From: Asterias amurensis
Taxonomy: Eukaryota
DNA length: 64,000 nucleotides
Reading direction: 5' to 3'
Assembly: GCF_032118995.1 (NCBI RefSeq)
Contig: NC_092655.1
Location: 14,461,223-14,525,222, forward strand
The notes beneath the pieces were generated by a model. It was not told the DNA's origin. It was given only the letters and a program-made list of their open reading frames with translations, and ran no database searches. Positions 1 to 59,354 of this stretch are shown here, one piece after another (the first letter of the stretch is position 1; every line of letters starts with the position of its first letter). A program made the translations under genes and the position numbers.

Positions 1-755
1 CTTGTTCTGGAGTGAGGCTTGTGCAGTCTGTCAGTGTAGGTTCGGCTTGAAGGCTTTGGTTGGCGATGTTGCATGCTTCTTCGATTGATATGTTGGTGAA
101 CAGTGACACGACATCAAAACTGACAAGGATATCAGTTGGACGGAGATGTATGTGCTTGATGATGTCGACTAACTTGCTTGTGTTGTTGATGTGATGTTCA
201 GTGAGGCCAACTAGTCGATGGAGGTTCTTGGTGAGGTGTGTTGCAATGTTGTAAGAAGGTGAACCCTGGGAAGCCACGATGGGGCGGAGAGGACCATCTG
301 GCTTGTTGATCTTGGGTTGGCAGAAGAAACGTGGGCAGGTGAATGCGGATGGCTTGAGGTGACGGTACGTGGTGTTGTCTATGACTTGCGCTTGATAGAG
401 AGTACAGAGTTTGGTGGTGAGTGTGCGTTCAATGACTGGGCTGGGGTTCCTTGGCAGGCATTGGTAGCTATTAGTTGACAGGATTTCATTTACTTGGTGG
501 TCATAATCCGTTGTAGACATTACCATAGTGGCATTACCCTTGTCCGCTGACATGATGTGGATGGACTTGTCTTTGTGCAGGGCTCAGATATCAGCATTTT
601 CTCGCCTGCTTGTGTAGGGTCTTGGTAACTTGGCGTTTGAAGTCTTTGCAGAATTTGGATGCGGACTTGGTTGGCGACTGTCTTGTCCAGATGTTTGAGT
701 GCAGGTTCAGGGGACTGATTGATGTCTTTGACTTGAATCATGCGAGGTGTGCTGG
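1..755 (-). mobile_element. Penelope-like element of the N lineage. Only the 5' part is present (RT N-terminal region, cut off by the window edge). It lies head-to-head with the next element.
   Basis: The - strand ORF 520..783 is identical in type to 15786..16079 and 22545..22838. The sequence matches 15297-16050. Confidence 0.8.
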
Positions 756-1176
756 CGCCCACACATTGCACGATTCCAGTCAAAGATATTATTCAGTCTA
801 CCGAACCTGCGCTCAAACATCTAGACAAGACATTCGTCAACCATATCCGCATCCAGATTCTTCAAACTCTTCAAACACCAAGTTACCAAGACCCAACACA
901 AGCAAGCAAGAACACGCCGCTATCCGAGCCCTGCACAAAGACAAGTCTATCCACATCATTTCAACGAACATTGGTAATGCCACCGTGTTCATGTGCACAA
1001 CAGATTCTGACCACAAGGTAACCGACATCCTGTCAACTGATACCTACCGACGCCTGCCAAGTAACTCCTGTTCAGTCATCGAACGCACCCCCACTGCTAA
1101 ATTCTGCACTCTCTATCAAGCGCAGGTCATAGACAACACCATGTACCGTCACCTCAAGCCATCCGCATCCGCCTAA
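610..1176 (+). pseudogene. RT N-terminal segment of PLE P1a
   Basis: Its C-terminal half aligns to the N-lineage RT N-terminus 'MSADKGNATMVMSTTDYDHQVNEILSTNTYQCLPRNPSPVIERTLTTKLCTLYQAQVIDNTTYRHLKPSA'. Stops and frameshifts follow downstream at 1177-1440. Confidence 0.75.
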
Positions 1177-2917
1177 TCACGTTTTTTTGGCCAACCTTAA
1201 GAGCCACAAGCCAGATGTTCCTCTCCGTCCCATCGTGGCGTCCCGGGGTCACCCACCTACAATACTGCAAGACACCCCACCAAGACCCTTCATCCACTAG
1301 TTGGCCTCACTGAACATAACATTAACAACTCAAGCAAGTTCGTCGACATTATCAAATACATACATCTCCGCCCAACTGAGATCCTTGTCAGTTTTGACAT
1401 CATGTCACTATTCACCAACATACCAACTGAAGAAGCATGCAACATCGCCGAACAATGCCTTCAAGCCTAACCTACACTGACAGACCGCACAAGACTCACT
1501 CCAGAACAAGTCCACGACCTCCTTATCACATGTTCTCCGCTTTTAGATTCAGGTGGCGAGACAAATTCTACGAACAAACCTCTGGGGCCACCATGGGATC
1601 TCCTCTATCCCCGGTCCTGATGGATTTGTTCATGGAGGAGTTTTAACTTGACGGTATCAAGAACGCCAATCTTAGCCCCAACCTCAGGTTCCGCTACATT
1701 GACGACACCTTTGTGGTTTTGGCCCAACGGCAAGACAGCACTCCAAAAGTTCTTCCATCAACTGAACAGTCATTATCTACGTATCCGATTCAACATGGAA
1801 CAAGAACAAAACAATGCTATCTCCTTCCTAGGTGCCGAAGTAACAAGACAAGCTGATGGCACTCTAGCCCACACGGTACATCACAAGCCAACGCACACCA
1901 ACAGATACATTCACAACTCATTATTCCACCATCCTCGCATCAAGTCTGCTGTCTCCAACACCTTGGTCCGTTGGACCTTGGACACCTGTGACAAGGGCAG
2001 CTTGAAGCAGGAACTACAACACATCAAGACATCACGTCAACCTAATGGCTACAAAACTTTCAACCTCAGCGAGCCCAAGCCAAGTCTCACACCAGATGAA
2101 CTACCAGAGTTCAAGGCTGCAATCTCCCTCCCAAACATTGGCCTATCTTCTCACAAGCTTCAACGTATCTTCATTCAAGCTGAAGTCAAGACCTTCCATA
2201 CAGCATCAAACAAGATTCAAGCATCGCTCCACACACACAAGGACAAGCAAGACACTCGAGACAAAGCCAGCGTTTACCACATTCCCTGCGATTACTGTGA
2301 AGTATACATCGTGGAACCAGGGCGCAATATCTCAACAAGAATCAAGGAACACAAAGCACATGGCACACTGGAACACCTCAACAATTCAGCCATCATCAAA
2401 TATTCACACGAACACGACAGCATCATCAAGTGGAATCAAGCCAAACTCATAGCTCATGTACAGTCCTGTCACCAATGCAGAGTCGGGGAGGCCATCGATA
2501 TACAAGCACGCCATACAGTTCCAGAAGACATCGGTTTCTTCATTAACGACATCTGGTCACACATCCTCAAGCCAACCCTTCCAGCAGCAGCTCACCACAA
2601 GAATGTCACACTCCAATGCACACACATCCAGCCAGCAATCAACTCACATGCATTACCGGCCAAGAACAGCTTTGATCCATCCCGCCCAAATGCTCATCCA
2701 TCCAGCACTTCTAAAGTTCGACCATTGCCTGTAGTCCAACATTCTCCTGAAGACGAGCAGAATAAACTGTTAGAAACATCGAGACCAAACCTGCTCTTTC
2801 CAGAGCCAATACTCACCTTAAGAGGTTTACACATGGTTGTCCCTGTAAATTCTTATTTCTCCACACCATGCAAAGCTTCAAACAATACATATCCAAGATG
2901 GGATTAAATCGCAACAA
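755..2917 (+). mobile_element. Penelope-like retroelement of the P lineage (copy P1a). It is degenerate and carries RT plus a C-terminal GIY-YIG endonuclease.
   Basis: The RT N-terminal region (ORF 610..1176 '...DHKVTDILSTDTYRRLP...CTLYQAQVIDNTMYRHLKPS') is followed by a stop- and frameshift-riddled '(F)FGQP*...PLRPIV' region. The N lineage shows this region intact as 'FFCQPKIHKPDGPLRPIMAS'. RT motifs 'GSPLSPVLMDLFMEEF' and 'RYIDDTFVV' lie at about 1590-1715. A 419-aa ORF (1648..2907) holds the thumb and the GIY-YIG motif 'VYHIPCDYCEVYIVEPGRNISTRIKEHK...SAIIKYSHEHDSIIKW...RVGEAIDI'. Confidence 0.85.
1648..2907 (+). pseudogene. PLE P1a ORF covering the RT thumb, linker, GIY-YIG endonuclease and C-tail. 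It is out of frame with the upstream RT because of a 1-nt insertion after YIDDTFVV.
   Basis: The GIY-YIG core lies at about 2272-2560. The N lineage reads DTFVV-RPYDKTALQEFF continuously, whereas P has 'ttttgg' in place of 'ttagg'. An in-frame TAA at about 1645-1647 follows MEEF in this copy. Confidence 0.8.
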
Positions 2918-4110
2918 ACCTAGGTAGAATAGCTAGAGAATGATCTCTTTATACTCAAAACTCTATTTCGAGATGCATTTTTCTCATTGTCTGTATTTTT
3001 TCTTTAATTTTTTTACGGCGACGGTGAACCATCTGCCTATTGGAGACCAATGGAAACTGCACCATTCCAGTTGCGGCCATGAAGACATCAATGGGAGCTG
3101 TGTATCTTTGAGGAAAACGACAGAAAAAGGTAAGTTTACATTAAGGGACCGTAAGTTGTTGAGATTTATCCGGAAATCAAGATTATGTCTAGATTTAAAA
3201 GGGGCTCCATGCTAAAATTTAGCTTTGAAAATCACCAGTTTTCCAATTGCTAGAGTCCTCATGAAAAAAATCTAAACCTCGCAGCATGAATATTGTTCTA
3301 TGGTGAAAAGTATTTAATGAGAATAGTGATTTTGTAATAACTTGATTGGCATATATTTCAGGAGTCTGCAGTTCTGCTGGGGATGTGGTGTGCTACCTGC
3401 CGATGACCAAAAGCCATGATGCAACAGTGCCTGACTATGCGGACAGCATCCCAGCTGTCATTTAAGTGCACCAAACATAGGTAGATAGCTGGAGAATGAT
3501 CTCTTTAATCTCTAAACTCTGTTGGGGAAGTGCATTTTGCTAATAGTTTGTATTTGTCGTTTATTTTTTACGGCGACGGTGAACTGGTTAAATGTTTAAC
3601 CATCTGCCCATGGGAGTCCAGTGGAAACTGCACATGCCGGCCATGAAGTAATCATTGGGACCTTTGTACGCTGTGAGCAAAATGACAAGACAGGGTAAGT
3701 TTATTTTTAGTTTGATTGTTGGCAAATTTTGTGATTTTGACTGGAGCATAACTATTTTCCTCTTCTGGATTAGTGATGTGAAAAAAATAACATTGTATTA
3801 CATAAATGTGCCAAATACAACCTTGCAACATGAACTATAATTGTTCTACAGTAAAAAGTATTTGGTGAAAATAATTTCACTGAAATGTCTTAATTGACAT
3901 ATATTTCAGGAGTCTGCAGATCTGCTTGGGACACCTGCTGATAACAAGCACCAACATGAAAACAGCCGAGAGGATGCCTGCCTATGCGGACAACATCCCA
4001 GTTGTCATTGAAGTGCACCAAACATAGGTAGATAGCTAGAGAATGATCTCTTTAATCTCGAAACTTCATTTCGCAGTGCATTTCATTTGCTTGGATCCTT
4101 TTTGTTCTTA
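2918..4110 (+). repeat. Three tandem M modules (2918-3478, 3479-4025, and a truncated one at 4026-about 4110) that follow the PLE 3' end. Each has an exon-like block, a donor AG|GTAAGTTT, an intron of about 230 bp and an acceptor TTTCAG|GAGTCTGCAG. The boundary motif is 'ataggtagatagctagagaatgatctctttaatctc'.
   Basis: Donors lie at about 3130 and 3699. Acceptors lie at about 3361 and 3903. The boundary motif lies at 2918, 3478 and 4025. The modules are about 70% identical to each other, yet the splice-signal blocks are conserved. Confidence 0.7.
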
Positions 4111-4439
4111 AGCAGCTCTATGAAAGTTGGCCCTGATGATCCAAGTCTTGATATGGTACTGATGCGAGTACATTGTAATTTTGTTGTAGATGATTGTGAC
4201 GACTGCGTGTCAACATGGACCATGAAGATGTGACGTCACAGTACAGAAAGATACATCATGGCTTGGGGAGATAGACTTATTCCTCAGCTACTCACCAGGG
4301 TCCTAAGTGGAATTTGAAGGTATGATCTGTTTTAGCGAAGCTTGAGATGAAAGTTTAGAAATCCATACAAGTGCAGACAATAGAAATTTCTTAGGTTTCA
4401 TTATTCAAACATAGTCCCATATACCTTAATAATAATAAT

Positions 4440-4760
4440 AAACAGTTCTTATATAGCGCAAATTACAAAATAAAGTCTCTAAGGGCTTCTATGATTGAAA
4501 AGATGGGTTTTAAGTTTAGATTTAAATGTTCGTAGCGTGGCACAGTCTATGATATTGTTGGGAAGAGAGTTCCAAAGTCTTGGAGAAGCATATTTGAAGG
4601 AGCGATGACCGTTGACCTTGTCTGAAAAATGTATGTTAAAGCGTGCGCCAGGAGGGTCACTGAGTGAGGGATATGCATACTTAATAAAAAGCAATTCTTG
4701 ATATAGTATACACACATCTTTGACCTTTAAATCCAAATCTCGCTCTAATGAGTTTTTTCT
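4440..4760 (-). repeat. Dispersed repeat fragment (SINE/TE-like) encoding a 'PRLWNSLP...FKSKLKTHLF' peptide, followed on the - strand by an (ATT)n-rich tail
   Basis: The - strand ORF 4479..4736 contains a motif that I recall as recurring in repeat-derived predicted proteins of aquatic animals, although I have not verified this against a database. Identical copies lie at 26496-26816 and 49001-49321 within the higher-order repeat. Confidence 0.4.
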
Positions 4761-5164
4761 TTCTTTTTGATCATATTTAATACAGGATTAACACGTTCGA
4801 ACATCTTCAAGTTGGATGCATGAAGATGCTGTGCCACCTTATGCAACACCAATAAAACACTTGCTTCACCACCTCATCTAAGGCATCATGACAACAGATG
4901 AACATTGTCAACAGAATGAACCCAAAGAACACAAACGAGACGAAGAGGCAGACCAAGTTGGCGTTAGATGGATGACATCAGAGAATTTGGAAGCGTCACT
5001 TGGATGCGACAAGTGCAAGAACGATCAAGGTGGAATGGTGAAGAGGCCTTACTTCTGCAGTATGTAGCGACATTATCTAGATAGATATTTTGCCACTTAC
5101 ACAAAAATATTTACTCTGTACAAAGGCAAGACAACATAAGGTTATTTGTAAAAGTAAACTCACT

Positions 5165-7330
5165 ACCAATAAAAAGTAAACAAGTGTGTTAAGGACTGTA
5201 TATAAGTGGTGATTTATGTAATGAAGTTTTGTGTTGTAATAATGAATTAAATATAAATTGTAACTTTTATTTTGTGTCACTCTGTAATTCAATTATTTGT
5301 TATTCTTATTGTTTACATGGTATCTGTTCTGGGGTACCCTCACATGGTGGCCACCATGTTTTTTTTACTGGTTACTATATGAAGACATGTAAATATTGTG
5401 ACACACTTGGGGTTTAGTAACTCTTGTTAAAGTTTGTAATGTCAAAGGTCATGACCTTGTGTGTGTTTGAGTACTCATTAACCAGGTTTATTATTACAAA
5501 GGTCTAGACATTGTTCATGGTATTTGTTAGGGATAATCAGTCCAGTTTTTGAGTACTCTTAACGACGTTAAACAAGTGTGTTAAGGACTGTATATAAGTG
5601 GCGATTTATGTAATGAAGTTTTGTATTGTAATAATGAATTAAATATAAATTGTGACTTTTGTTTCGTGTCACTCTGTAATTCAATTATTTATTATTTTAA
5701 TTATTAACATGGTATCTCTTCTGGGGTACCCTCACATGGTGGCCACCATGTTTTTTTACTGGTTACTATATGAAGACATGTAAATATTGTGACACACTTG
5801 GGGTTTAGAACTCTTTTTAAAGTTTGTTATGTCAAAGGTCATGACCTTGTGTGTGTGTTTGAGTACTCATTAACCAGGTTTATTATTACAATGGTCTAGA
5901 CATATTGTTCATGGTATTTATTAAGGATAATCAGTCCAGTTTTTGAGTACTCTTAACGACGTTAGAAAAATGTGTTAAGGACTGTATATAAGTGGTGATT
6001 TATGTAATAAAGTTTGGTATTGTAATAATGAATTAAATATAAATTGTAACTTTTATTTTGTGTCACTCTGTAATTCAATTATTTGTTATTCTAATTGTTT
6101 ACATGGTATCTGTTCTGGGGTACCCTCACATAGTGGCCAGCATGTTTCTTTACTGGTTACTATATGAAGACATGTAAATATTGTGACACACTTGGGGTTT
6201 AGTAACTCTTGTTAAAGTTTGTAATATCAAAGTTTTTGAGTACTCTTAACGACGTTAAACAAGTTTGTTAAGGACTGTATATAAGTGGGGATTTATGTAA
6301 TAAAGTTTGGTATTGTAATAATGAATTAATTATAAATTGTAACTTTTATTTTGTGTCACTCTGTAATTCAATTATTTGTTATTCTAATTGTTTACATGGT
6401 ATCTATTCTGGGGTACCCTCACATGGTGGCCACCATGTTTTTTTACTGGTTACTATATGAAGACATGTAAATATTGTGACACACTTGGGGTTTAGTAACT
6501 CTTGTTAAAGTTTGTAATATCAAAGTTTTTGAGTACTCTTAACGACGTTAAACAAGTTTGTTAAGGACTGTATATAAGTGGTGATTTATGTAATAAAGTT
6601 TGGTATTGTAATAATGAATTAATTATAAATTGTAACTTTTATTTTGTGTCACTCTGTAATTCAATTATTTGTTATTCTAATTGTTTACATGGTATCTATT
6701 CTGGGGTACCCTCACATGGTGGCCACCATGTTTTTTTACTGGTTACTATATGAAGACATGTAAATATTGTGACACACTTGGGGTTTAGTAACTCTTGTTA
6801 AAGTTTGTTATGTCAAAGGTCATGACCTTGTGTGTGTTTGAGTACTCATTAACCAGGTTTATAATTACAAAGGTCTAGCCATTGTCCATGGTATTTATAT
6901 GGATAATCAGTCCAGTTTGTGAGTACTTTAAGAGTCTTAACGACGTTAAAAAAGTGTGTTAAGGACTGTATATAAGTGTTGATTTATGTAATGAAGTTTT
7001 GTATCGTAATAATGAATTAATTATAAATTGTAACCTTTTATTTTGTGTCACTCTGTAATTCAATTATTTATTATTCTAATTATTAACATGGTATCTGTTC
7101 TGGGGTACCCTCACATGGTGGCCACCATGTTTTTTACTGGTTACTATAGGAAGACATGTAAATATTGTGACACACTTGGGGTTTGTAGTAACTCTTTTTC
7201 AAAGGTCATGACCTTGTGTGTGTTTGAGTACTCAATAACCAGGTTTATTATTACAAAGGTCTAGACATTTTCCACGGTATTTATTAAGGGTATGCAGTCC
7301 ATTTTTGGAGTACTCTTAACGACGTTATTT
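5165..7330. repeat. Satellite array with monomers of about 390-400 bp, about 5.5 monomers in copy A. Two are shortened variants of about 300 bp.
   Basis: 'aaacaagtgtgttaaggactgtatataagtgg' recurs at 5170, 5570, 5958, 6265, 6548 and 6948. The conserved core is 'ctggggtaccctcacatggtggccaccatgttttttt'. Confidence 0.92.
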
Positions 7331-8150
7331 GATAACAAGGTTATGACATTGTTTATGGTGTTTACATGTATATACGGTTTCGAGTACTCATTAACGAGGT
7401 TTTGTAATTACAAAGGTCATGCCATTTTCTATGGTTTTTATTAAGGGTGTTTGATTCAGGGAATGACCGGGTTGGTGGCTGGCGCTGTAAGGTTGACATT
7501 GTTTGCAGTGTTGTTAATTATGGGTGTTTGAGTACTCATTAACGATGTATTATGATCTCTTTTCACTGTTAATTGTGGGGTGGGAGATGACAACCTTCAC
7601 GTGGTCCACCCTGTTGTTAACTAATTGTCATCAAACAATAGAGCTTTATAACCATGTTTATAAAGCTCTATGCACCAAACCAATTTGTTAATGACATTGT
7701 GATGACATTTTCTTTGGTGTTTATTTAGAGAGTTTGAGTACTCATTAAGGTTGACATTGTTTGCAGTGTTAATTTAGTGTGTTTGAGTACTCATTAACGA
7801 TGTATTAGGATCTCTTTTAACTGTTAATTGTGGGGTGGGAGATGACAACCTTCACGTGGTCCACCCTGTTGTTAACTAATTGTCATCAAACAATAGAGCT
7901 ATATAAACAAAGCTCTATGCAGCAAAAACAAAATTTTAATTACAAGGTCATGACATTTTCCTTGGTGTTTATCTAGGGGATTTGAGTACTTATTAACGAT
8001 GTAGATTTTAAACGATCTCTTTAAACTGTTATTTGTGGGGTGGGAGGTGACAACCTTCACGTGGTCCATATCCTGTTGTTAACTAATTGTCATCAAACAT
8101 TAGAGCTATGAATATACAAGTTTAAAGCTCTATGCATCAAACCATACCCT
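7331..8150. repeat. A diverged partial 390-bp monomer, then a related 250-bp satellite in 3 copies (about 7525, 7775, 7985) with internal palindromes
   Basis: 'gtttgagtactcattaacgatgta...gttaattgtggggtgggagatgacaaccttcacgtggtccaccctgttgttaactaattgtcatcaaacaatagagct' occurs three times. It shares the 'tttgagtactcattaac' motif with the 390-bp satellite. It contains the palindromes 'atagagctttata...tataaagctctat' and CACGTG. Confidence 0.85.
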
Positions 8151-8234
8151 TTTCATGAAATGCCCGCAGTAGATTTGAACAAATGTGTGGAAATGTTGTT
8201 TGTTCTTTTATGCAAATCACTTGTTTATTTTGTA

Positions 8235-8620
8235 AGATGTTACGGGAAACAGCAGGGTCACGGCAAACGTGCGGCGTGCGCCGTCTCCGTTTTTAAGTAA
8301 ACTCATTTTGGGGAAGATGTATGCTGTTTAGTGTAACCCGTTCGTATGTACGCAAAAGAAACAAAACAAAGCGCCCGCCTAGCGCGTTAGCGCTGCTGGA
8401 ATAGAACGCGCGTATGTCATGTAACCCTGACGTCATAATCAATTCCATAAAAAAAATTACGAAATTGTAACATTTTGCCCATTTTTTTGACACCGAAAAA
8501 ATATGTTTCCCGCAGTAAAAATGTAAAAAGCTAACAACGGCAAAATTCTTCAAGATACTAAAAATATGCATTAAAATCTCTAACGTAATGGGAAACAGTC
8601 AGGGTCACGGCAAACGTGAA
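8235..8620. repeat. CpG-rich block bounded by the direct repeats 'gggaaacag(c/t)cagggtcacggcaaacgtg' at about 8243 and about 8589. It contains the CRE palindrome TGACGTCA at about 8428.
   Basis: Read directly from the sequence. Present again in copies B (about 30685-31066) and C (about 55970-56350). Confidence 0.6.
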
Positions 8621-11189
8621 GGGTTCATCAAAAAGGAGTTATATTCATAACACACTTTGCGACGGTTTTTCTTTAAAATGTGCATACGGTTAAACAAATT
8701 TGACAACCCTTCATTTAGCAAAACATCTCAAGATAATCCTCCTTCATTTTAAGTGTTGTTCAAATATTTCCCACCAAGCGGAGCGTTTTACTGACGTGCT
8801 TATGAACACTCGGATTTTCTCATGAATTCTCAAAGGGTCTGGGAGCGCCTATTCTGATCACGATTTTGCAAAGAAACGCTGCGCGTCAGCTTCATTATCT
8901 CGTAGTTGTGCACTGACTGAGCCAAAAGGGAATTAATGACTTGATGAACTTTTAAGAATGTTCATGATCAGTCCATGCATCAAACAGTTCATGACATGTT
9001 CATCACATCAGTTCATGAACCAAGTTCATGAACTGATCCATTCCATTAATGGACAAGTTAAAAAAGTTTTGTGTGTTTTCATAAAAGTCAATTTATAAGC
9101 TTTCTTTGCAGTTAATGAACTCTAATGAATAATCGTAACTCAACTGTGTATTAACTTAACTCCCTGTTTACAAATTGGTATACATTTTTCTTCTAACTTT
9201 AATTATTTACAGTTTCTGTATGTCAGTGATAGTAGTGATCATTAGTATCATAATTACCAAGCACTTTACTCTGACAATTTTTTTTCCTGCCCTTTAGGTG
9301 TACAGTATAAATTAGTTTTAAAAATTTCAATTTATTTGCCAGGTTAACATTACGCATTTATAAAATAAAGACATTGATCATGTGAAACAAGAAACAACTG
9401 TGTGATGTAGAATGATCATTGTAAAGTAATAGAAAACACCCTGCCCTGTAAAACACTCTGCATTGTTTTTTTGTCAAATGAAAATGTGCCTGTGTGAATT
9501 ATGATTAATTTTGTTCACCTAAAAGAACTCGGGCAAAATCCGAGTCGGTTTCCCTTGATTTTGAAACTTGGCACGGTGACAGTTTTATTAAAGAGATAGT
9601 TACACAGTAAGTAGTAGTGTTTGTTTTGAAGAACATCGTTGGTTATCAACTCTTATTCTAGAAATTAAAACGTCACTTTGTATACAACATAAATTTGTCT
9701 TGCAACAGTCTCTTTAAATCCTCCATAACAACACATCGAACAAATGGAAGAAACAAATCAAGCAGGGACAATCTTCATAATTTGCACAAATTTAAAGTTG
9801 TCATTTTTGCCGCTATTTAGACTAATGTATGTATACATAAGCCGTGATAGTAGTAAAATTTACGTATATAATTTTCACCTAAAATCTTCAAGCAAATGTT
9901 TCTTGAAACAACCCCAAACAAAAGTGTCAATAACATAGACAAAAGGAATGACGGGAGGTTTTATATGGCCTCAACATTATTACTTATTTTTCTACCTTGT
10001 AGAAATGCCGAAAACTACAAACTTTTTGCATTAACAAGTGCAAACAACCAGTGGAGCCTTACGTGTTTCTAAGTTTTGCTCTTTGCTTGGCAAATAAAAC
10101 CATATTTGTTGTAATCTAGCGACTGTTTACATCGCGCACAGAGAGGTAAAAGATTTGTCACGATTTTACGGACACCTTGAAAACAGGACCTCCTCCTTAT
10201 CGCACATATTATTACAGTTAATCGCATACATATTACAATTTATTGCAAAATATTACATTTTTTGCATACATAAATGAATATCGCACATTATGTGACAATA
10301 CTGTGACGTCATACTCTTATAAGAGATCAGCGATTATGCAAGACCAGCGCTTTTTGGATCCATCAGTTTCTTTGTTATTTGGGTGCGGTGATTGCATGCT
10401 CCTTGGCTAATTTAAATGTGAATAACCCAGTTGTGAAAGATTTACAATAGTTTTTCTGTAAGCTTGTGATTGAGTGGAAATTTCCGTTATGGTCCAATAG
10501 ACTCGCTGATATGCCACGGTTGGGAGTGCTTGTTTGTGGACCTATGTGCTGTGCTTTTCTTTGCTTTGCTGTCCTGTTTTGTGAGTACTGGTTTCTTCGA
10601 TATTTTCAGGTTTCTTTAGGACTCCTAGATTTATAACGACTACAATATAACCGTATTGAGTGTTTTGAAACTGGATCTCAAAAAAATAAGTCTCGAAGTG
10701 TGGAATAATTCACAGACGCGGCACATTGCTTGCCGTTCTGTGGCAATGGAAAAAAAGAATTATATAAATTAAACAAATTTGTATAGGACATAGTGCATAT
10801 TATACATAATTTATAAATTATACTATATAAATTCATAGTTTTTATAGGAATATATATTCCCACAGGTTCCTCATACCTATGTTTAATAAATCATCCTCTC
10901 CTTTCATGGACCATTCTTTGTCCTCATCACTTTACTCTCATTGGTTCATAGCCACCCACAAAGACTTTGATTTACTAGAATCTAACCCTTTTTCTGGTTC
11001 CTTCCTTTAAAACCTTTCTCCTCTTTTTCTAGGGAAATGTAATTGTTTGAACATTCATAAAGCATTAATATTAAGTTTAAATATTAAGTTTAAATATATA
11101 TAAAGTTTACAATAGTAATTATTAAACAAAAAAGTTTTAACAAAAAAAAAATTAACAAAATGTATATAAAAACAATTTTTTTAATGAAA

Positions 11190-13028: not shown

Positions 13029-13040
13029 GGGGGGGGGGGG
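13029..13040. repeat. G12 homopolymer run inside the M intron. Other G runs lie at 18625-18632, 19784-19796, 35470-35484 and 42288-42298.
   Basis: 'attggggggggggggactcgattatgtaagatgc', read directly. Confidence 0.9.
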
Positions 13041-48671: not shown

Positions 48672-49000
48672 AGCAGCTCTATGAAAGTTGGCCCTGATGA
48701 TCCAAGTCTTGATATGGTACTGATGCGAGTACATTGTAATTTTGTTGTAGATGATTGTGACGACTGCGTGTCAACATGGACCATGAAGATGTGACGTCAC
48801 AGTACAGAAAGATACATCATGGCTTGAGGAGATAGACTTATTCCTCAGCTACTCACCAGGGTCCTAAGTGGAATTTGAAGGTATGATCTGTTTTAGCGAA
48901 GCTTGAGATGAAAGTTTAGAAATCCATACAAGTGCAGACAATAGACATTTCTTAGGTTTCATTATTCAAACATAGTCCCATATACCTTAATAATAATAAT

Positions 49001-49321
49001 AAACAGTTCTTATATAGCGCAAATTACAAAATAAAGTCTCTAAGGGCTTCTATGATTGAAAAGATGGGTTTTAAGTTTAGATTTAAATGTTCGTAGCGTG
49101 GCACAGTCTATGATATTGTTGGGAAGAGAGTTCCAAAGTCTTGGAGAAGCATATTTGAAGGAGCGATGACCATTGACCTTGTCTGAAAAATGTATGTTAA
49201 AGCGTGCGCCAGGAGGGTCACTGAGTGAGGGATATGCATACTTAATAAAAAGCAATTCTTGATATAGTATACACACATCTTTGACCTTTAAATCCAAATC
49301 TCGCTCTAATTAGTTTTTTCT
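49001..49321 (-). repeat. PRLWNSLP-type repeat fragment (copy C)
   Basis: ORF 49040..49297. Confidence 0.4.
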
Positions 49322-49724
49322 TTCTTTTTTGATCATATTTAATACAGGATTAACACGTTCGAACATCTTCAAGTTGGATGCATGAAGATGCTGTGCCACC
49401 TTATGCAACACCAATAAAACACTTGCTTCACCACCTCATCTAAGGCATCATGACAACAGATGAACATTGTCAACAGAATGAACCCAAAGAACACAAACGA
49501 GACGAAGAGGCAGACCAAGTTGGCGTTAGATGGATGACATCAGAGAATTTGGAAGCGTCACTTGGATGCGAAAAGTGCAAGAACGATCAAGGTGGAATGG
49601 TGATGGCCTTACTTCTGCAGTATGTAGCGGCATTATCTAGATAGATATTTTGCCACTTACACAAAAATATTTACTCTGTACAAAGTCAAGACAACATAAG
49701 GTTATTTGTAAAAGTAAACTCACT

Positions 49725-52700
49725 ACCAATAAAAAGTAAACAAGTGTGTTAAGGACTGTATATAAGTGGTGATTTATGTAATGAATTTTTGTATTGTAAT
49801 AATGAATTAAATATAAATTGTAACTTTTATTTTGTGTCACTCTGTAATTCAATTATTTGTTATTCTTATTGTTTACATGGTATCTGTTCTGGGGTACCCT
49901 CACATGGTGGCCACCATGTTTTTTTTACTGGTTACTATATGAAGACATGTAAATATTGTGACACACTTGGGGTTTAGTAACTCTTGTTAAAGTTTGTAAT
50001 GTCAAAGGTAATGACCTTGTGTGTGTTTGAGTACTCATTAACCAGGTTTATTATTACAAAGGTCTAGACATTGTTCATGGTATTTGTTAGGGATAATCAG
50101 TCCAGTTTTTGAGTACTCTTAACGACGTTAAACAAGTGTGTTAAGGACTGTATATAAGTGGCGATTTATGTAATGAAGTTTTGTATTGTAATAATGAATT
50201 AAATATAAATTGTAACTTTTGTTTTGTGTCACTCTGTAATTCAATTATTTATTATTTTAATTATTAACATGGTATCTCTTCTGGGGTACCCTCACATGGT
50301 GGCCACCATGTTTTTTTACTGGTTACTATATGAATACATGTAAATATTGTGACACACTTGGGGTTTAGAACTCTTTTTAAAGTTTGTTATGTCAAAGGTC
50401 ATGACCTTGTGTGTGTTTGAGTACTCATTAACCAGGTTTATTATTACAATGGTCTAGACATATTGTTCATGGTATTTATTAAGGATAATCAGTCCAGTTT
50501 TTGAGTACTCTTAACGACGTTAGAAAAATGTGTTAAGGACTGTATATAAGTGGTGATTTATGTAATGAAGTTTTGTATTGTAATAATGAATTAAATATAA
50601 ATTGTAACTTTTATTTTGTGTCACTCTGTAATTCAATTATTTGTTATTCTAATTGTTTACATGGTATCTGTTCTGGGGTACCCTCACATAGTGGCCAGCA
50701 TGTTTCTTTACTGGTTACTATATGAAGACATGTAAATATTGTGACACACTTGGGGTTTAGTAACTCTTGTTAAAGTTTGTAGTATCAAAGTTTTTGAGTA
50801 CTCTTAACGACGTTAAACAAGTGTGTTAACGACTGTATATAAGTGGTGATTTATGTAATAAAGTTTGGTATTGTAATAATGAATTAATTATAAATTGTAA
50901 CTTTTATTTTGTGTCACTCTGTAATTAAATTATTTATTATTTTAATTATTAACATGGTATCTCTTCTGGGGTACCCTCACATGGTGGCCACCATGTTTTT
51001 TTACTGGTTACTATATGAAGACATGTAAATATTGTGACACACTTGGGGTGTAGTAACTCTTGTTAAAGTTTGTAATGTCAAAGGTCATGACCTTGTGTGT
51101 GTTTGAGTACTCATTAACCAGGTTTATTATTACAAAGGTCTAGACATTGTTCATGGTATTTGTTAGGGATAATCAGTCCAGTTTTTGAGTACTCTTAACG
51201 ACGTTAAACAAGTGTGTTAAGGACTGTATATAAGTGGCGATTTATGTAATGAAGTTTTGTATTGTAATAATGAATTAAATATAAATTGTAACTTTTGTTT
51301 TGTGTCACTCTGTAATTAAATTATTTATTATTTTAATTATTAACATGGTATCTCTTCTGGGGTACCCTCACATGGTGGCCACCATGTTTTTTTACTGGTT
51401 ACTATATGAAGACATGTAAATATTGTGACACACTTGGGGTTTAGAACTCTTTTTAAAGTTTGTTATGTCAAAGGTCATGACATTGTGTGTGTTTGAGTAC
51501 TCATTAACCAGGTTTATTATTACAATGGTCCAGACATATTGTTCATGGTATTTATTAAGGATAATCAGTCCAGTTTTTGAGTACTCTTAACGACGTTAGA
51601 AAAATGTGTTAAGGACTGTATGTAAGTGGTGATTTATGTAATGAAGTTTTGTATTGTAATAATGAATTAAATATAAATTGTAACTTTTATTTTGTGTCAC
51701 TCTGTAATTCAATTATTTGTTATTCTAATTGTTTACATGGTATCTGTTCTGGGGTACCCTCACATAGTGGCCAGCATGTTTCTTTACTGGTTACTATATG
51801 AAGACATGTAAATATTGTGACACACTTGGGGTTTAGTAACTCTTGTTAAAGTTTGTAGTATCAAAGTTTTTGAGTACTCTTAACGACGTTAAACAAGTGT
51901 GTTAACGACTGTATATAAGTGGTGATTTATGTAATAAAGTTTGGTATTGTAATAATGAATTAATTATAAATTGTAACTTTTATTTTGTGTCACTCTGTAA
52001 TTCAATTATTTGTTATTCTAATTGTTTACATGGTATCTATTCTGGGGTACCCTCACATGGTGGCCACCATGTTTTTTTACTGGTTACTATATGAAGACAT
52101 GTAAATATTGTGACACACTTGGGGTTTAGTAACTCTTGTTAAAGTTTGTTATGTCAAAGGTCATGACCTTGTGTGTGTTTGAGTACTCATTAACCAGGTT
52201 TATAATTACAAAGGTCTAGCCATTGTCCATGGTATTTATATGGATAATCAGTCCAGTTTGTGAGTACTCTAAGAGTCTTAACGACGTTAAAAAAGTGTGT
52301 TAAGGACTGTATATAAGTGTTGATTTATGTAATGAAGTTTTGTAACGTAATAATGAATTAATTATTAATTGTAACCTTTTATTTTATGTCACTCTGTAAT
52401 TCAATTATTTGTTATTCTAATTGTTTACATGGTATCTATTCTGGGGTACCCTCACATGGTGGCCACCATGTTTTTTTACTGGTTACTATATGAAGACATG
52501 TAAATATTGTGACACACTTGGGGTTTAGTAACTCTTGTTAAAGTTTGTTATGTCAAAGGTCATGACCTTGTGTGTGTTTGAGTACTCATTAACCAGGTTT
52601 ATAATTACAAAGGTCTAGCCATTGTCCATGGTATTTATATGGATAATCAGTCCAGTTTGTGAGTACTCTAAGAGTCTTAACGACGTTAAAAAAGTGTGTT

Positions 52701-55060
52701 AAGGACTGTATATAAGTGTTGATTTATGTAATGAAGTTTTGTAACGTAATAATGAATTAATTATTAATTGTAACCTTTTATTTTATGTCACTCTGTAATT
52801 CAATTATTTGTTATTCTAATTGTTTACATGGTATCTATTCTGGGGTACCCTCACATGGTGGCCACCATGTTTTTTTACTGGTTACTATATGAAGACATGT
52901 AAATATTGTGACACACTTGGGGTTTAGTAACTCTTGTTAAAGTTTGTTATGTCAAAGGTCATGACCTTGTGTGTGTTTGAGTACTCATTAACCAGGTTTA
53001 TAATTACAAAGGTCTAGCCATTGTCCATGGTATTTATATGGATAATCAGTCCAGTTTGTGAGTACTCTAAGAGTCTTAACGACGTTAAAAAAGTGTGTTA
53101 AGGACTGTATATAAGTGTTGATTTATGTAATGAAGTTTTGTAACGTAATAATGAATTAATTATTAATTGTAACCTTTTATTTTATGTCACTCTGTAATTC
53201 AATTATTTGTTATTCTAATTGTTTACATGGTATCTATTCTGGGGTACCCTCACATGGTGGCCACCATGTTTTTTTACTGGTTACTATATGAAGACATGTA
53301 AATATTGTGACACACTTGGGGTTTAGTAACTCTTGTTAAAGTTTGTTATGTCAAAGGTCATGACCTTGTGTGTGTTTGAGTACTCATTAACCAGGTTTAT
53401 AATTACAAAGGTCTAGCCATTGTCCATGGTATTTATATGAATAATCAGTCCCGTTTGTGAGTACTCTAAGAGTCTTAACGACGTTAAAAAAGTGTGTTAA
53501 GGACTGTATATAAGTGTTGATTTATGTAATGAAGTTTTGTAACGTAATAATGAATTAATTATTAATTGTAACCTTTTATTTTATGTCACTCTGTAATTCA
53601 ATTATTTGTTATTCTAATTGTTTACATGGTATCTATTCTGGGGTACCCTCACATGGTGGCCACCATGTTTTTTTACTGGTTACTATATGAAGACATGTAA
53701 ATATTGTGACACACTTGGGGTTTAGTAACTCTTGTTAAAGTTTGTTATGTCAAAGGTCATGACCTTGTGTGTGTTTGAGTACTCATTAACCAGGTTTATA
53801 ATTACAAAGGTCTAGCCATTGTCCATGGTATTTATATGGATAATCAGTCCAGTTTGTGAGTACTCTAAGAGTCTTAACGACGTTAAAAAAGTGTGTTAAG
53901 GACTGTATATAAGTGTTGATTTATGTAATGAAGTTTTGTAACGTAATAATGAATTAATTATTAATTGTAACCTTTTATTTTATGTCACTCTGTAATTCAA
54001 TTATTTGTTATTCTAATTGTTTACATGGTATCTATTCTGGGGTACCCTCACATGGTGGCCACCATGTTTTTTTTACTGGTTACTATATGAAGACATGTAA
54101 ATATTGTGACACACTTGGGGTTTAGTAACTCTTGTTAAAGTTTGTTATGTCAAAGGTCATGACCTTGTGTGTGTTTGAGTACTCATTAACCAGGTTTATA
54201 ATTACAAAGGTCTAGCCATTGTCCATGGTATTTATATGGATAATCAGTCCAGTTTGTGAGTACTCTAAGAGTCTTAACGACGTTAAAAAAGTGTGTTAAG
54301 GACTGTATATAAGTGTTGATTTATGTAATGAAGTTTTGTAACGTAATAATGAATTAATTATTAATTGTAACCTTTTATTTTATGTCACTCTGTAATTCAA
54401 TTATTTGTTATTCTAATTGTTTACATGGTATCTATTCTGGGGTACCCTCACATGGTGGCCACCATGTTTTTTTACTGGTTACTATATGAAGACATGTAAA
54501 TATTGTGACACACTTGGGGTTTAGTAACTCTTGTTAAAGTTTGTTATGTCAAAGGTCATGACCTTGTGTGTGTTTGAGTACTCATTAACCAGGTTTATAA
54601 TTACAAAGGTCTAGCCATTGTCCATGGTATTTATATGGATAATCAGTCCAGTTTGTGAGTACTCTAAGAGTCTTAACGACGTTAAAAAAGTGTGTTAAGG
54701 ACTGTATATAAGTGTTGATTTATGTAATGAAGTTTTGTATCGTAATAATGAATTAATTATTAATTGTAACCTTTTATTTTATGTCACTCTGTAATTCAAT
54801 TATTTATTATTCTAATTATTAACATGGTATCTGTTCTGGGGTACCCTCACATGGTGGCCACCATGTTTTTTACTGGTTACTATAGGAAGACATGTAAATA
54901 TTGTGACACACTTGGGGTTTGTAGTAACTCTTTTTCAAAGGTCATGACCTTGTGTGTGTTTGAGTACTCATTAACCAGGTTTATTATTACAAAGGTCTAG
55001 ACATTTTCCACGGTATTTATTAAGGGTATGCAGTCCATTTTTGGAGTACTCTTAACGACG
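49725..55060. repeat. 390-bp satellite, about 14 monomers in copy C. A block of 6 near-identical monomers spans about 52290-54700.
   Basis: The monomer period is about 390 bp (for example 52290, 52680, 53070, 53460, 53850, 54240). Array length is 5.3 kb here, against 2.2 kb in copy A and 2.5 kb in copy B. Confidence 0.9.
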
Positions 55061-55870
55061 TTATTTGATAACAAGGTTATGACATTGTTTATGGTGTTTA
55101 CATGTATATACGGTTTCGAGTACTCATTAACGAGGTTTTGTAATTACAAAGGTCATGCCATTTTCTATGGTTTTTATTAAGGGTGTTTGATTCAGGGAAT
55201 GACCGGGTTGGTGGCTGGCGCTGTAAGGTTGACATTGTTTGCAGTGTTAATTATGGGTGTTTGAGTACTCATTAACGATGTATTATGATCTCTTTTCACT
55301 GTTAATTGTGGGGTGGGAGATGACAACCTTCACGTGGTCCACCCTGTTGTTAACTAATTGTCATCAAACAATAGAGCTTTATAACCATGTTTATAAAGCT
55401 CTATGCACCAAACCAATTTGTTAATGACATTGTGATGACATTTTCTTTGGTGTTTATTTAGAGAGTTTGAGTACTCATTAAGGTTGACATTGTTTGCAGT
55501 GTTAATTTAGTGTGTTTGAGTACTCATTAACGATGTATTAGGATCTCTTTTAACTGTTAATTGTGGGGTGGGAGATGACAACCTTCACGTGGTCCACCCT
55601 GTTGTTAACTAATTGTCATCAAACAATAGAGCTATATAAACAAAGCTCTATGCAGCAAAAACAAAATTTTAATTACAAGGTCATGACATTTTCCTTGGTG
55701 TTTATCTAGGGGATTTGAGTACTCATTAACGATGTAGATTTTAAACGATCTCTTTAAACTGTTATTTGTGGGGTGGGAGGTGACAACCTTCACGTGGTCC
55801 ATCCTGTTGTTAACTAATTGTCATCAAACATTAGAGCTATGAATATACAAGTTTAAAGCTCTATACATCA
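55061..55870. repeat. Partial monomer plus the 250-bp satellite in 3 copies (copy C)
   Basis: Colinear with 7331-8150. Confidence 0.85.
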
Positions 55871-58800
55871 AACCATACCCTTTTCATGAAATGCCCGCAG
55901 TAGATTTGAACAAATGTGTGGAAATGTTGTTTGTTCTTTTATGCAAATCACTTGTTTATTTTGTAAGATGTTACGGGAAACAGCAGGGTCACGGCAAACG
56001 TGCGGCGTGCGCCGTCTCCGTTTTTAAGTAAACTCATTTTGGGGAAGATGTATGCTGTTTAGTGTAACCCGTTCGTATGTACGCAAAAGAAACAAAACAA
56101 AGCGCCCGCCTAGCGCGTTAGCGCTGCTGGAATAGAACGCGCGTATGTCATGTAACCCTGACGTCATAATCAATTCCATAAAAAAAATTACGAAATTGTA
56201 ACATTTTGCCCATTTTTTTGACACCGAAAAAATATGTTTCCCGCAGTAAAAATGTAAAAAGCTAACAAATGCAAAATTCTTCAAGATACTAAAAATATGC
56301 ATTAAAATCTCTAACGTAATGGGAAACAGTCAGGGTCACGGCAAACGTGAAGGGTTCATCAAAAAGGAGTTATATTCATAACACACTTTGCGACGGTTTT
56401 TCTTTAAAATGTGCATACGGTTAAACAAATTTGACAACCCTTCATTTAGCAAAACATCTCAAGATAATCCTCCTTCATTTTAAGTGTTGTTCAAATATTT
56501 CCCACCAAGCGGAGCGTTTTACTGACGTGCTTATGAACACTCGGATTTTCTCATGAATTCTCAAAGGGTCTGGGAGCGCCTATTCTGATCACGATTTTGC
56601 AAAGAAACGCTGCGCGTCAGCTTCATTATCTCGTAGTTGTGCACTGACTGAGCCAAAAGGGAATTAATGACTTGATGAACTTTTAAGAATGTTCATGATC
56701 AGTCCATGCATCAAACAGTTCATGACATGTTCATCACAGCAGTTCATGAACCAAGTTCATGAACTGATCCATTCCATTAATGGACAAGTTAAAAAAGTTT
56801 TGTGTGTTTTCATAAAAGTCAATTTATAAGCTTTCTTTGCAGTTAATGAACTCTAATGAATAATCATAACTCAACTGTGTATTAACTTAACTCCCTGTTT
56901 ACAAATTGGTATACATTTTTCTTCTAACTTTAATTATTTACAGTTTCTGTATGTCAGTGATAGTAGTGATGTATCATTAGTATCATGATTACCAAGCACT
57001 TTACTCTGACAATTTTTTTTCCTGCCCTTTAGGTGTACAGTATAAATTAGTTTTAAAAATTTCAATTTATTTGCCAGGTTAACATTACGCATTTATAAAA
57101 TAAAGACATTGATCATGTGAAACAAGAAACAACTGTGTGATGTAGAATGATCATTGTAAAGTAATAGAAAACACCCTGCCCTGTAAAACACTCTGCATTG
57201 TTTTTTTGTCAAATGAAAATGTGCCTGTGTGAATTATGATTAATTTTGTTCACCTAAAAGAACTCGGGCAAAATCCGAGTCGGTTTACCTTGATTTTGAA
57301 ACTTGGCACGGTGACAGTTTTATTAAAGAGATAGTTACACAGTAAGTAGTAGTGTTTGTTTTGAAGAACATCGTTGGTTATCAACTCTTATTCTAGAAAT
57401 TAAAACGTCACTTTGTATACAACATAAATTTGTTATGCAACAGTCTCTTTAAATCCTCCATAACAACACATCGAACAAATGGAAGAAACAAATCAAGCAG
57501 GGACAATCTTCATAATTTGCACAAATTTAAAGTTGTCATTTTTGCCACTATTTACACAAATGTATGTATACATAAGCCGTGATAGTAGTAAAATTTACGT
57601 ATATAATTTTCACCTAAAATCTTCAAGCAAATGTTTCTTGAAACAACCCCAAACAAAAGTGTCAATAACATAGACAAAAGGAATGACGGGAGGTTTTATA
57701 TGGCCTCAACATTATTACTTATTTTTCTACCTTGTAGAAATGCCGAAAACTACAAACTTTTTGCATTAACAAGTGCAAATAACCAGTGGAGCCTTACGTG
57801 TTTCTAAGTTTTGCTCTTTGCTTGGCAAATAAAACCATATTTGTTGTAATCTAGCGACTGTTTACATCGCGCACAGAGAGGTAAAAGATTTGCCACGATT
57901 TTACGGACACCTTGAAAACAGGACCTCCTCCTTATCGCACATATTATTACAGTTAATCGCACACATATTACAATTTATTGCAAAATATTACATTTTTTGC
58001 ATACATAAATGAATATCGCACATTATGTGACAATACTGTGACGTCATACTCTTATAAGAGATCAGCGATTATGCAAGACCAGCGCTTTTTGGATCCATCA
58101 GTTTCTTTGTTATTTGGGTGCGGTGATTGCATGCTCCTTGGCTAATTTAAATGTGAATAACCCAGTTGTGAAAGATTTACAATAGTTTTTCTGTAAGCTT
58201 GTGATTGAGTGGAAATTTCCGTTATGGTCCAGTAGACTCGCTGATATGCCACGGTTGGGAGTGCTTGTTTGTGGACCTATGTGCTGTGCTTTTCTTTGCT
58301 TTGCTGTCCTGTTTTGTGAGTACTGGTTTCTTCGATATTTCCAGGTTTCTTTAGGACTCCTAGATTTATAACGACTACAATATAACCGTATTGAGTGTTT
58401 TGAAACTGGATCTCAAAAAAATAAGTCTCGAAGTGTGGAATAATTCACAGACGCGGCACATTGCTTGCCGTTCTGTGGCAATGGAAAAAAAGAATTATAT
58501 AAATTAAACAAATTTGTATAGGACATAGTGCATATTATACATAATTTATAAATTATACTATATAAATTCATAGTTTTTATAGGAATATATATTCCCACAG
58601 GTTCCTCATACCTATGTTTAATAAATCGTCCTCTCCTTTCATGGACCATTCTTTGTCCTCATCACTTTACTCTCATTGGTTCATAGCCACCCACAAAGAC
58701 TTTGATTTACTAGAATCTAACCCTTTTTTCTGGTTCCTTCCTTTAAAACCTTTCTCCTCTTTTTCTAGGGAAATGTAATTGTTTGAACATTCATAAAGCA

Positions 58801-59354
58801 TTAATATTAAGTTTAAATATTAAGTTTAAATATATATAAAGTTTACAATAGTAATTATTAAACAAAAAAGTTTTAACAAAAAAAAAATTAACAAAATGTA
58901 TATAAAAACAATTTTTTTAATGAAAGTCTCTGATTGGTCAAAACCCAGTCACATGTGAGAGTGTTAACGGTGGTATAAATACCGGCTTTGGAAAATAGCG
59001 AAGAAGTGGCCACTTAACCAGCATACATTGTGTAAACCTTGCGCGTTGCACTGTATCGCACGCTTATTTATATCCCTGTTAGTTTTATTGCAACTTCGCG
59101 CACTTACGCGTACGCGCGCTGAAAATGTATCAATTTTGAGTGCGCGCGTGTAACATGTGCGCGCGTATAAACTGACGCCGAGCTCATGCGCGCGTTTTAA
59201 TGCACAAGGAACAGCTATCGTCCAATCATTTGCCTCCTTTGACCCCAGTGAAGGCGCTGAACAGATCGTTAATTAAAAGAGTCACTGGTCTCAAAGATCA
59301 GTAATGTGATTAACGCACGAAAGAGATTGGAACCATCAAAAGCTCAAAATATGA

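Follow-up and report, generated by a model that had tools for sequence, protein, structure and literature searches.

Introduction

Macrosatellites and other tandem segmental duplications, such as human D4Z4 and DXZ4, are composed of multi-kb units arranged head to tail, and the human alpha-satellite arrays are an example of centromeric higher-order repeats (HORs). For Penelope-like elements (PLEs), inverted 5'-truncated copies and a microsatellite insertion bias have been reported, and PLE structures have been found to cause assembly problems (PMC8557442). Animal non-LTR retrozymes are presented as short tandem repeats that contain hammerhead ribozymes and are linked to PLEs (bioRxiv 10.64898/2026.07.22.740005).

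Here we analyzed a stretch of 64,000 nucleotides from Asterias amurensis (referred to as the window), most of which is occupied by a repeat array. We propose that this locus is probably a young, low-copy tandem segmental duplication (macrosatellite-like) of 22.4-kb gene-free, repeat-rich DNA.

Results

Self-megablast of the window revealed that positions 1-59354 form a head-to-tail array of a partial unit 0 followed by the complete units 1 and 2 (Table 1). Positions 6231-28971 matched 28677-51473 colinearly over 22.8 kb (99.13%), positions 1-6525 matched 22056-28578 (99.66%) and 44561-51083 (99.11%), and positions 6537-11618 matched 28983-34062 and 54272-59354 at 99.1%. The array has a period of 22,444-22,507 bp with 2.6 units visible in the window, and 22 kb at more than 99% identity is beyond the reach of chance. 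The first-pass annotation, which was made from the letters and their open reading frames (ORFs), had proposed about 2.7 copies, about 99% identical, of a 22.5-kb unit whose building blocks were pairs of inactive PLEs, a satellite of about 390 bp and other sequence. The tandem organization, the colinear offsets and the identity (99.1-99.66%) agree with that proposal, and the PLE pairs, the satellite and the lesions shared by the units are all present; the multiplicity of copies also stands, with the measured number being 2.6.

Both internal unit junctions (11618/11619 and 34062/34063) are identical in sequence, and the right end of the array is exact at 59354/59355, where the three copies stay identical as far as ...AAAATATGA and diverge completely thereafter. 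The sequence beyond 59354 matched nothing in the units, and therefore the right end shows no flanking direct repeat. Because the left window edge falls within a palindrome copy, the repeat continues past that edge, as had been suggested. Thus, the count of 2.6 units is a lower bound for an array whose left end lies outside the window and whose copy number and tandem order are taken from one assembly. An exact look-up of the 48-aa ORF over the 11618/11619 junction and a scan of JGI metagenomes for a 27-mer found no independent contig across that junction. The window contains no N characters and therefore no scaffold gap.

Outside the satellites, the units differ from each other by 0.06-0.6%, with substitutions between unit 2 and either of the other two at 0.45-0.62%, and the satellite blocks account for most of the approximately 1% between-unit difference. 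Unit 2 is longer than unit 1 because its satellite has expanded.

Table 1. Features of the window and their coordinates.
Feature	Coordinates	Strand	Remarks
Unit 0, partial, cut by left window edge	1..11618	+	matches unit 1; 0.06-0.14% substitutions vs unit 1
Unit 1, complete, 22,444 bp	11619..34062	+	junctions at both ends have the same sequence
Unit 2, complete, last, 25,292 bp	34063..59354	+	from self-megablast, junction comparison and satellite counts
Sub-repeat a (0.9-kb left flank, palindrome, 0.2-kb tail)	12541..18625	+	pairs with 19295-25325
Sub-repeat b	19295..25325	+	pairs with 12541-18625
PLE palindrome Eb0, right 3.1 kb only	1..3146	.	0.16% from Eb1
PLE palindrome Ea1	13830..18443	.	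minus arm 16052 down to 13830, plus arm from 16053 to 18443
PLE palindrome Eb1	20588..25202	.	1.76% from Ea1, 0.50% from Eb2
PLE palindrome Ea2	36337..40950	.	0.50% from Ea1; private stop at equivalent of 17305
PLE palindrome Eb2	43092..47707	.	private 1-bp insertion
Satellite block of unit 0, 6 monomers of ~395 bp	5177..7316	+	includes ~282-293-bp deletion variants
Satellite block of unit 1, 7 monomers	27233..29762	+
Satellite block of unit 2, 14 monomers	49737..55052	+
(ATT)n and (GCTGTC)n microsatellites	13407..13829	+	directly abut left arm of Ea1; unit-2 copy 35854-36336, longer
Solo ~400-bp element	12792..13189	+	also the plus-arm PLE 3' tail (18359-18782); 82-83% identity
LINE-tail-like fragment, motif '...WNSLP...LKTHLF'	26538..26843	-	in every unit; weak similarity
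SINE-like piece	11619..11826	-	by eye, B-box-like GGTTGAAATCC; ARAGORN calls no tRNA
31-bp minisatellite, 17 copies	59355..59900	+	directly after array, outside unit
APE-type non-LTR retrotransposon fragment, C-terminal region	62139..62350	-	outside array; 56% identity to P0171 residues 746-792
NAD-dependent isocitrate dehydrogenase exon (IDH3 beta/gamma-like)	63414..63556	+	4 kb from array end

Each unit contains two copies (a and b) of a 4.6-kb spacerless palindrome, and each palindrome consists of two dead PLEs placed head to head, with arms that are 85-86% identical (complementary). The centre of Ea1 is GGCGCC at 16050-16055, and both of its arms, which carry stops and frameshifts, align with Patiria miniata P0005 over residues ~88-717 of that protein. 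The point at which both arms begin, the equivalent of P0005 residue ~88, is located some 8 codons upstream of where the intact relative P0001 (636-aa ORF) starts.

The arm translation matched 270 proteins (best E 7e-169, 55% identity), nearly all the longer ones having an RVT_1 domain, and had 49% identity to protein P0014 over the RVT_1 region. The reverse transcriptase (RT) motifs FDVVSLFTNIP and RY(I/V)(N/D)DTF are visible in the arm translations. At the C-terminus, GVYRIPCDCGKVYFAETWRSISTR from the minus arm and SVYHIPCDYCEVYIVEPGRNISTRIKEHK from the plus arm pair with P0014 from residue 358 to 401 or further, a region in which Pfam places GIY-YIG (residues 365-402, E 4e-6), and key residues of the GIY-YIG endonuclease are mutated in the window copies. 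Both arms can be aligned over almost the full length of intact PLE proteins from echinoderms, including the RVT_1 and GIY-YIG regions. Because the copies are too decayed, Pfam found no domain above threshold in the individual window ORFs, and the PLE identity was therefore established through homologues, of which the nearest named PLE proteins (45-51% identity) are from Asterias, Patiria, Acanthaster, Lytechinus and Anneissia. Comparison of P0001 with PDB sequences returned weak matches to group II intron and telomerase RTs (E 0.009-0.9), which are compatible with a PLE and are not decisive. Two relatives, the intact L004 and the truncated, 80%-identical L005, both occur as solitary elements; therefore, the palindrome is not universal in this PLE family.

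No hammerhead ribozyme was found in the whole window at the Rfam gathering threshold, in positions 11000-36500 at E<=1, or with the pattern CTGATGA..GAAA (0 matches). None is expected, since the truncated copies do not have the 5' region where pseudo-LTRs lie. Direct copies of the PLE 3' tail flank palindrome a in a pseudo-LTR-like manner. The window has no other Rfam RNA, with two sub-threshold miRNA chance matches at E<=1 in 11000-36500, and zero tRNAs by ARAGORN.

The presence in each unit of two long transposable-element inverted repeats that have no spacer, together with intact relatives such as P0001 in other assemblies, would fit an array with a function in small-RNA production (as a piRNA cluster or a hairpin endo-siRNA locus), in which the PLE palindromes would give long hairpins that silence active relatives. 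Amplification of such a source could, as a speculation, be advantageous. Nevertheless, the arms are just 85% complementary, the closest intact relative found (55% protein identity, ~64% DNA identity) is too distant for RNA-guided targeting, and no sequence feature requires a function. We consider a small-RNA source very unlikely.

All five palindrome copies share three minus-arm stops, three plus-arm stops (equivalents of 15882, 15249, 14341, 16470, 16494 and 16764) and every frameshift. Other lesions are specific to copy type (15120 in b and 16344 in a), and others again are private: Ea2 carries a stop, Eb2 a 1-bp insertion and Eb0 a 1-bp deletion. The palindrome alignment has only 5 indel columns across 4.6 kb, and the palindrome tree groups Eb0 with Eb1 (0.16%), with Eb2 at 0.6-0.7%, and Ea1 with Ea2 (0.5%), while a and b are 1.7% apart. 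The non-PLE parts of the unit give a tree of matching shape, with units 0 and 1 closest (0.06-0.14%) and unit 2 apart from both (0.45-0.62%). Since the lesions are nested (in all copies, in a or b, or private), the units arose when elements already dead were duplicated as DNA. Growth by DNA-level duplication rather than by retrotransposition, as proposed in the first-pass annotation, is thus supported by the shared stops and frameshifts, the few indel columns and the identical junctions.

Sub-repeats a and b represent an older ~6.75-kb duplication and account for about 12-13.5 kb of the 22.4-kb unit (about 60%), with satellite and unrelated debris filling the remainder. The divergence between a and b is 1.76% in the core and 4.7% and 8.9% in the flanks, a significant excess for the flanks (Fisher p = 2e-6 and 2e-5). 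Together these form a hierarchy in which the older a/b duplication (1.8% core) is nested in units that are 0.1-0.6% apart. Palindrome b with its left flank also occurs, at 97.6-98.7% identity, in three ENA contigs that were assembled independently and that form a consistent third lineage; therefore, the arrangement is real DNA present in other samples. That they are collapsed a/b chimeras was rejected, as all three share one interleaved pattern from which 'neither' sites are absent, as expected for a third lineage.

Each unit also holds a ~395-bp satellite, microsatellites and LINE/SINE-like debris. Six consecutive 399-bp monomers in unit 2 only (52277-54671) are 99.5-100% identical, indicating a very recent local expansion. 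The satellite as a hammerhead-bearing retrozyme repeat was rejected after Rfam found no hammerhead and the core pattern gave 0 matches. Additional copies of the ~400-bp element are located at 19546-19943 and, in part, at 25118-25323. The LINE-tail-like fragment matched a repeat inside P0170 (E 2e-10) and, at its C-terminal end, the LINE protein P0171 (E 0.25, not significant for this second protein), and one end of the SINE-like piece is the unit junction. A search with the 'unique' unit ORFs and three flank ORFs as one joined query found no host gene and only weak LINE-related matches.

These differences between the units bear on whether the array could be an assembly artefact, in which a single 22-kb locus or its two haplotypes were falsely placed in tandem. 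The unit divergence of 0.1-0.6% resembles the allelic divergence expected of a highly heterozygous marine invertebrate, and allelic divergence of echinoderms is expected to span this range. Thus, one false duplication may be compatible with the unit divergence alone, and palindromes and satellites are hostile to assembly. On the other hand, the copies number three instead of two, and the window is free of gaps and Ns. The two internal junctions agree in sequence, the right end is clean, the units are set apart from each other by satellite structure (6, 7 and 14 monomers) and by private indels, and the divergence gives a consistent tree in every segment. It is therefore improbable that the array is an artefact, and we favor a genuine tandem segmental duplication.

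On the right side of the array, the retrotransposon fragment matches a protein (P0171) that carries RVT_1 and Exo_endo_phos_2. The IDH3 exon has canonical splice sites (acceptor ttttttgtcag/ and donor CAG/gtaggt), matches Pfam Iso_dh positions 1-26 (E 1e-3) and proteins named isocitrate dehydrogenase (NAD+), and aligns to residues ~28-88 of 340-394-aa proteins. A candidate IDH3 exon 1 was also noted at 60255-60305, MACNVLTCLTKMRVAAK/gtaaga.

The location next to a spliced exon is relevant to the suggestion of the first-pass annotation that the array is a centromere-style HOR in heterochromatin. In its extended form, the window would be the right edge of a far longer pericentromeric or centromere-like heterochromatic HOR domain of tens of units or more. 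Such a domain would agree with the continuation of the array off the left edge, with the HOR-like hierarchy of units (99.4-99.9% alike, against 98.2% for the internal a and b), and with a content of satellite and dead transposable elements. The ENA contigs hold a slightly older variant of palindrome b that could be another unit of the array, but it is equally explicable as an allele or a sister-population sequence. However, the array ends cleanly inside the window after the 2.6 units seen, a spliced housekeeping-gene exon lies 4 kb away, the divergence is nested as in a few successive duplications and not homogenised over units, and the a/b sub-repeat makes up only about 60% of the unit. We therefore do not adopt the centromeric interpretation and regard a long HOR domain as unlikely.

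A further scenario combines copy number with function: the visible units would be the edge of a larger, copy-number-variable macrosatellite upstream of or in the IDH3 first intron, with palindromes that would give rise to hairpin RNAs feeding small-RNA silencing. If so, amplification of the array would have been selected and not neutral. As a reading of the sequence, we find this highly improbable.

Discussion

We propose that the young, low-copy segmental duplication was built in four steps, whose order we infer from the nested divergence and lesions. First, a PLE would have inserted as a head-to-head pair beside the (ATT)n/(GCTGTC)n microsatellite, with the truncation lying a short way upstream of the ORF, after which the arms would have decayed to 85% identity, gathering stops and frameshifts. 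Second, a ~6.75-kb segment bearing the palindrome was likely duplicated nearby to produce copies a and b. The lower divergence of the core (1.8%) than of the flanks (4.7-8.9%) suggests later gene conversion between the a and b palindrome cores, although this contrast could instead reflect uneven mutation rates. Third, a non-homologous join of 11618 to the equivalent of 11619 would have created the 22.4-kb tandem duplication, and unequal homologous exchange or replication slippage between the units may then have added at least one unit, units 0 and 1 probably being the youngest pair. Fourth, the copy numbers of the satellite and microsatellites appear to have kept changing within single units.

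The array is real but ordinary, and its significance beyond annotation is small. It provides a clean example of hierarchical array building, from palindrome to 6.75-kb duplication to 22.4-kb tandem array to satellite expansion, in which each step can be dated via the nested lesions. The PLE copies in the array must not be counted as retrotransposition events, and the region is an assembly-risk spot. Because the array abuts the IDH3 gene, copy-number variation could in principle affect the IDH3 5' region, and if many more units exist, the array would become a candidate macrosatellite marker.

Compared with centromeric HORs, the array likewise has units that are more alike than the sub-repeats within a unit, but it has two sub-repeats covering ~60% of the unit instead of a string of monomers, few units are seen, and it ends 4 kb from a housekeeping-gene exon. 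As in the non-LTR retrozymes, a ~395-bp tandem repeat shares the locus with PLE copies, whereas neither this satellite nor the rest of the window has a hammerhead motif (bioRxiv 10.64898/2026.07.22.740005). Like the canonical EN+ PLEs of the clades Penelope/Poseidon, Neptune and Nematis (PMC8557442), the elements are 5'-truncated, have an inverted adjacent copy and a microsatellite neighbour, and carry a PLE-type RT and, at the C-terminus, a GIY-YIG in the same ORF. Unlike canonical EN+ PLEs, all copies here are dead, no hammerhead-bearing pseudo-LTR was found, the two arms share one truncation point and so give a spacerless palindrome, and the copies were multiplied by DNA duplication and not by retrotransposition. 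In comparison with macrosatellites, the 22.4-kb unit is far larger, consists of a mosaic of debris from transposable elements with no recognisable gene, and is seen 2.6 times. The array resembles macrosatellites in having multi-kb head-to-tail units that are more than 99% identical and share the same junction, in its position in gene-adjacent DNA, and in a copy number that was probably altered by unequal exchange.

Results

The first-pass annotation had described a tandem array at 1-59354 with a period of about 22.5 kb, running on past the left edge of the window. Its coordinates and period, as well as the colinearity expected in a self dot-plot, are borne out by comparison of the window with itself, which gave long direct colinear matches: 6231-28971 with 28677-51473 (22.8 kb, 99.13% identity), 1-6525 with 22056-28578 (99.66%) and 44561-51083 (99.11%), and 6537-11618 with 28983-34062 and 54272-59354 (99.1%). 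The continuation past the left edge is confirmed. Identity of the three copies runs up to ...AAAATATGA, ending at 11618, 34062 and 59354; past that boundary the first two copies share the same continuation, and the third enters an unrelated minisatellite. The window holds 2.6 copies of the unit, and no scaffold gap lies between them because only A, C, G and T occur.

Features of the array and its right flank
Feature	Position	Strand	Remarks
Unit 0	1-11618		partial
Unit 1	11619-34062		complete; 22,444 bp
Unit 2	34063-59354		complete, last; 25,292 bp
4.6-kb palindrome, Eb0	1-3146		cut copy
4.6-kb palindrome, Ea1	13830-18443		copy a, unit 1
4.6-kb palindrome, Eb1	20588-25202		copy b, unit 1
4.6-kb palindrome, Ea2	36337-40950		unit 2
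4.6-kb palindrome, Eb2	43092-47707		unit 2
Satellite	follows palindrome copies a, b in unit		~395-bp monomers and ~282-293-bp deletion variants
LINE-tail-like ORF	26538-26843	-	inside each unit; tail motif WNSLP...LKTHLF
SINE-like piece	11619-~11826	-	B-box-like GGTTGAAATCC; judged by eye only
31-bp minisatellite	59355-59900		17 copies, ~89% matches; begins at first base past array
APE-type LINE fragment (non-LTR retrotransposon)	62139-62350	-	C-terminal ...VQHRAARFVVNDYSRHSS... region; 56% identity to a LINE protein with RVT_1 and Exo_endo_phos_2 (P0171)
Candidate upstream (possible first) IDH3 exon	60255-60305	+	MACNVLTCLTKMRVAAK/gtaaga; phase-compatible; 0.9 kb from array end
IDH3 beta/gamma-like exon	63414-63556	+	canonical acceptor and donor; 4 kb right of array

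Each palindrome consists of a minus arm and a plus arm joined head to head without a spacer, with GGCGCC at the centre (16050-16055 in Ea1) and 85% self-complementarity over 14044-18054 by self-comparison. The minus-arm translation, with one stop masked, had 270 protein matches (best E 7e-169), and the nearest named ones (45-51% identity) were all echinoderm proteins, from Asterias amurensis, Patiria miniata, Anneissia japonica, Lytechinus pictus and Acanthaster planci. Both arms align to residues ~88-717 of the 749-aa Patiria protein and to the regions of a PLE relative (P0014) that Pfam assigns to RVT_1 and GIY-YIG. In canonical EN+ PLEs, by definition, one ORF encodes a reverse transcriptase with a GIY-YIG endonuclease C-terminal to it (PMC8557442). 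Judged by sequence, the arms are Penelope-like elements. Rfam and pattern searches found no hammerhead ribozyme, as expected of copies without the 5' pseudo-LTR region.

Scored in frames set by the protein alignments and given in Ea1 coordinates, the lesions form a nested set of three classes. Stops at 15882, 15249 and 14341 in the minus arm and at 16470, 16494 and 16764 in the plus arm are common to every copy, and so are the frameshifts, as the five 4.6-kb copies together show just 5 indel columns. A stop at 15120 is specific to sub-copy b (both b copies covering that position) and one at 16344 to sub-copy a (both a copies). Three lesions are private: Ea2 has a stop of its own, Eb2 has gained 1 bp and Eb0 has lost 1 bp. 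Substitution distances between palindromes (Eb0-Eb1 0.16%; Eb0 or Eb1 to Eb2 0.6-0.7%; Ea1-Ea2 0.50%; a-b 1.7%) give the same tree as the nested lesions, and the non-PLE parts agree, with 0.06-0.14% between units 0 and 1 and 0.45-0.62% between either and unit 2. Taken together, the PLE copies in the array are dead and were multiplied as DNA, and the first proposal, that the array grew through duplication of DNA rather than retrotransposition, is well supported.

Copies a and b belong to an older duplication of ~6.75 kb (12541-18625 vs 19295-25325). When each segment was compared with its b counterpart, the flanks diverged by 4.7% (left, 12560-13400) and 8.9% (right, 18500-18623), whereas the palindrome core (13830-18443) diverged by 1.76% (Fisher p = 2e-6 and 2e-5). 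The simplest reading suggests later gene conversion between the two cores. The locus thus preserves four steps: divergence is 15% between the arms, 2-9% for the a/b duplication, 0.1-0.6% among the units and 0-0.5% for the satellite expansion.

The satellite has 6, 7 and 14 monomers in units 0, 1 and 2. An assembly artefact is unlikely, because the three copies are gap-free, differ in satellite structure and show a consistent divergence tree; its full exclusion would take read-level data. Six successive 399-bp monomers at 52277-54671 (99.5-100% identical), present in the last unit only, represent local amplification of very recent date. A further degenerate internal repeat (offset ~258 bp, 78-83% identical) immediately follows the main satellite at 7488-8141. 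Directly left of palindrome copy a lie ATT x ~100 and then (GCTGTC)n. The 3' tail of the plus arm (18359-18782) is a ~400-bp element that also has solo copies at 12792-13189 and 19546-19943. In this PLE tail the 31-mer ATTGATAGCTTGGGAAGTAATGAGGGACCGT is tandemly duplicated in copy a (18447-18509) and single in copy b (25200). The end of the SINE-like piece coincides exactly with the unit junction 11618/11619. Searches of the unit found no tRNA gene, Rfam family or host-gene ORF.

Right of the array, the exon at 63414-63556 encodes ...VPVDFEE... and matches the N-terminal end of Pfam Iso_dh. It also hits entries annotated as isocitrate dehydrogenase (NAD+), and in proteins of 340-394 aa its alignment covers residues ~28-88. 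An upstream IDH3 exon must therefore exist. Should the true exon 1 turn out to be to the left of the array, the whole array would sit in an intron.

Host DNA in three metagenome assemblies, of three different samples, also has palindrome b, together with as much as 1.7 kb of its left flank. The ENA contigs concerned (L001-L003: ERZ4235598, ERZ23489148 and ERZ23488403) match at 97.6-98.7% identity. At the 60 a/b-distinguishing sites the three share almost one and the same mosaic, with 20-22 sites like a, 38-40 like b and none unlike both; private changes amount to 0.2-0.7%. A third lineage split off before the window's units diverged would look like this, whether as an allele, a sister population or an older unit. 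The contigs confirm palindrome and context as real DNA, and are silent on unit number; a search for a contig spanning the unit junction found none. L001 joins a flank of b type to ~57 additional bp at the 31-mer position, apparently the same duplication as in copy a.

Discussion

What the window shows is an ordinary tandem segmental duplication, recent and low in copy number, that consists of debris from transposable elements and satellites and adjoins a gene. The centromere-style reading put forward earlier is unsupported: the nearby housekeeping gene, the clean array end and the presence of only 2.6 units argue against a centromere-like satellite domain. The piRNA-cluster suggestion made alongside it is speculative. 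The array may be longer, extending further left of the window.

Beyond 59354 there is no match to any part of the units, so that no direct repeat flanks the unit at the visible end. The first junction would most likely have been made by a non-homologous event. Unequal homologous exchange, or else slippage in replication, would have supplied the further units.

The two arms share one truncation point, which lies ~8 codons upstream of where the ORF begins in P0001 (on L004), the nearest intact relative. Two relatives in other assemblies are solitary, and the palindrome therefore characterises this particular insertion rather than the family at large. The spacerless GGCGCC centre and the same-codon truncation may have arisen when two elements were joined head to head during PLE integration, or through a fold-back of the DNA. 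Truncated 5' ends, a neighbouring inverted copy that is itself 5'-truncated, and a bias toward insertion in microsatellites are described for PLEs (PMC8557442), and each of these fits the locus.
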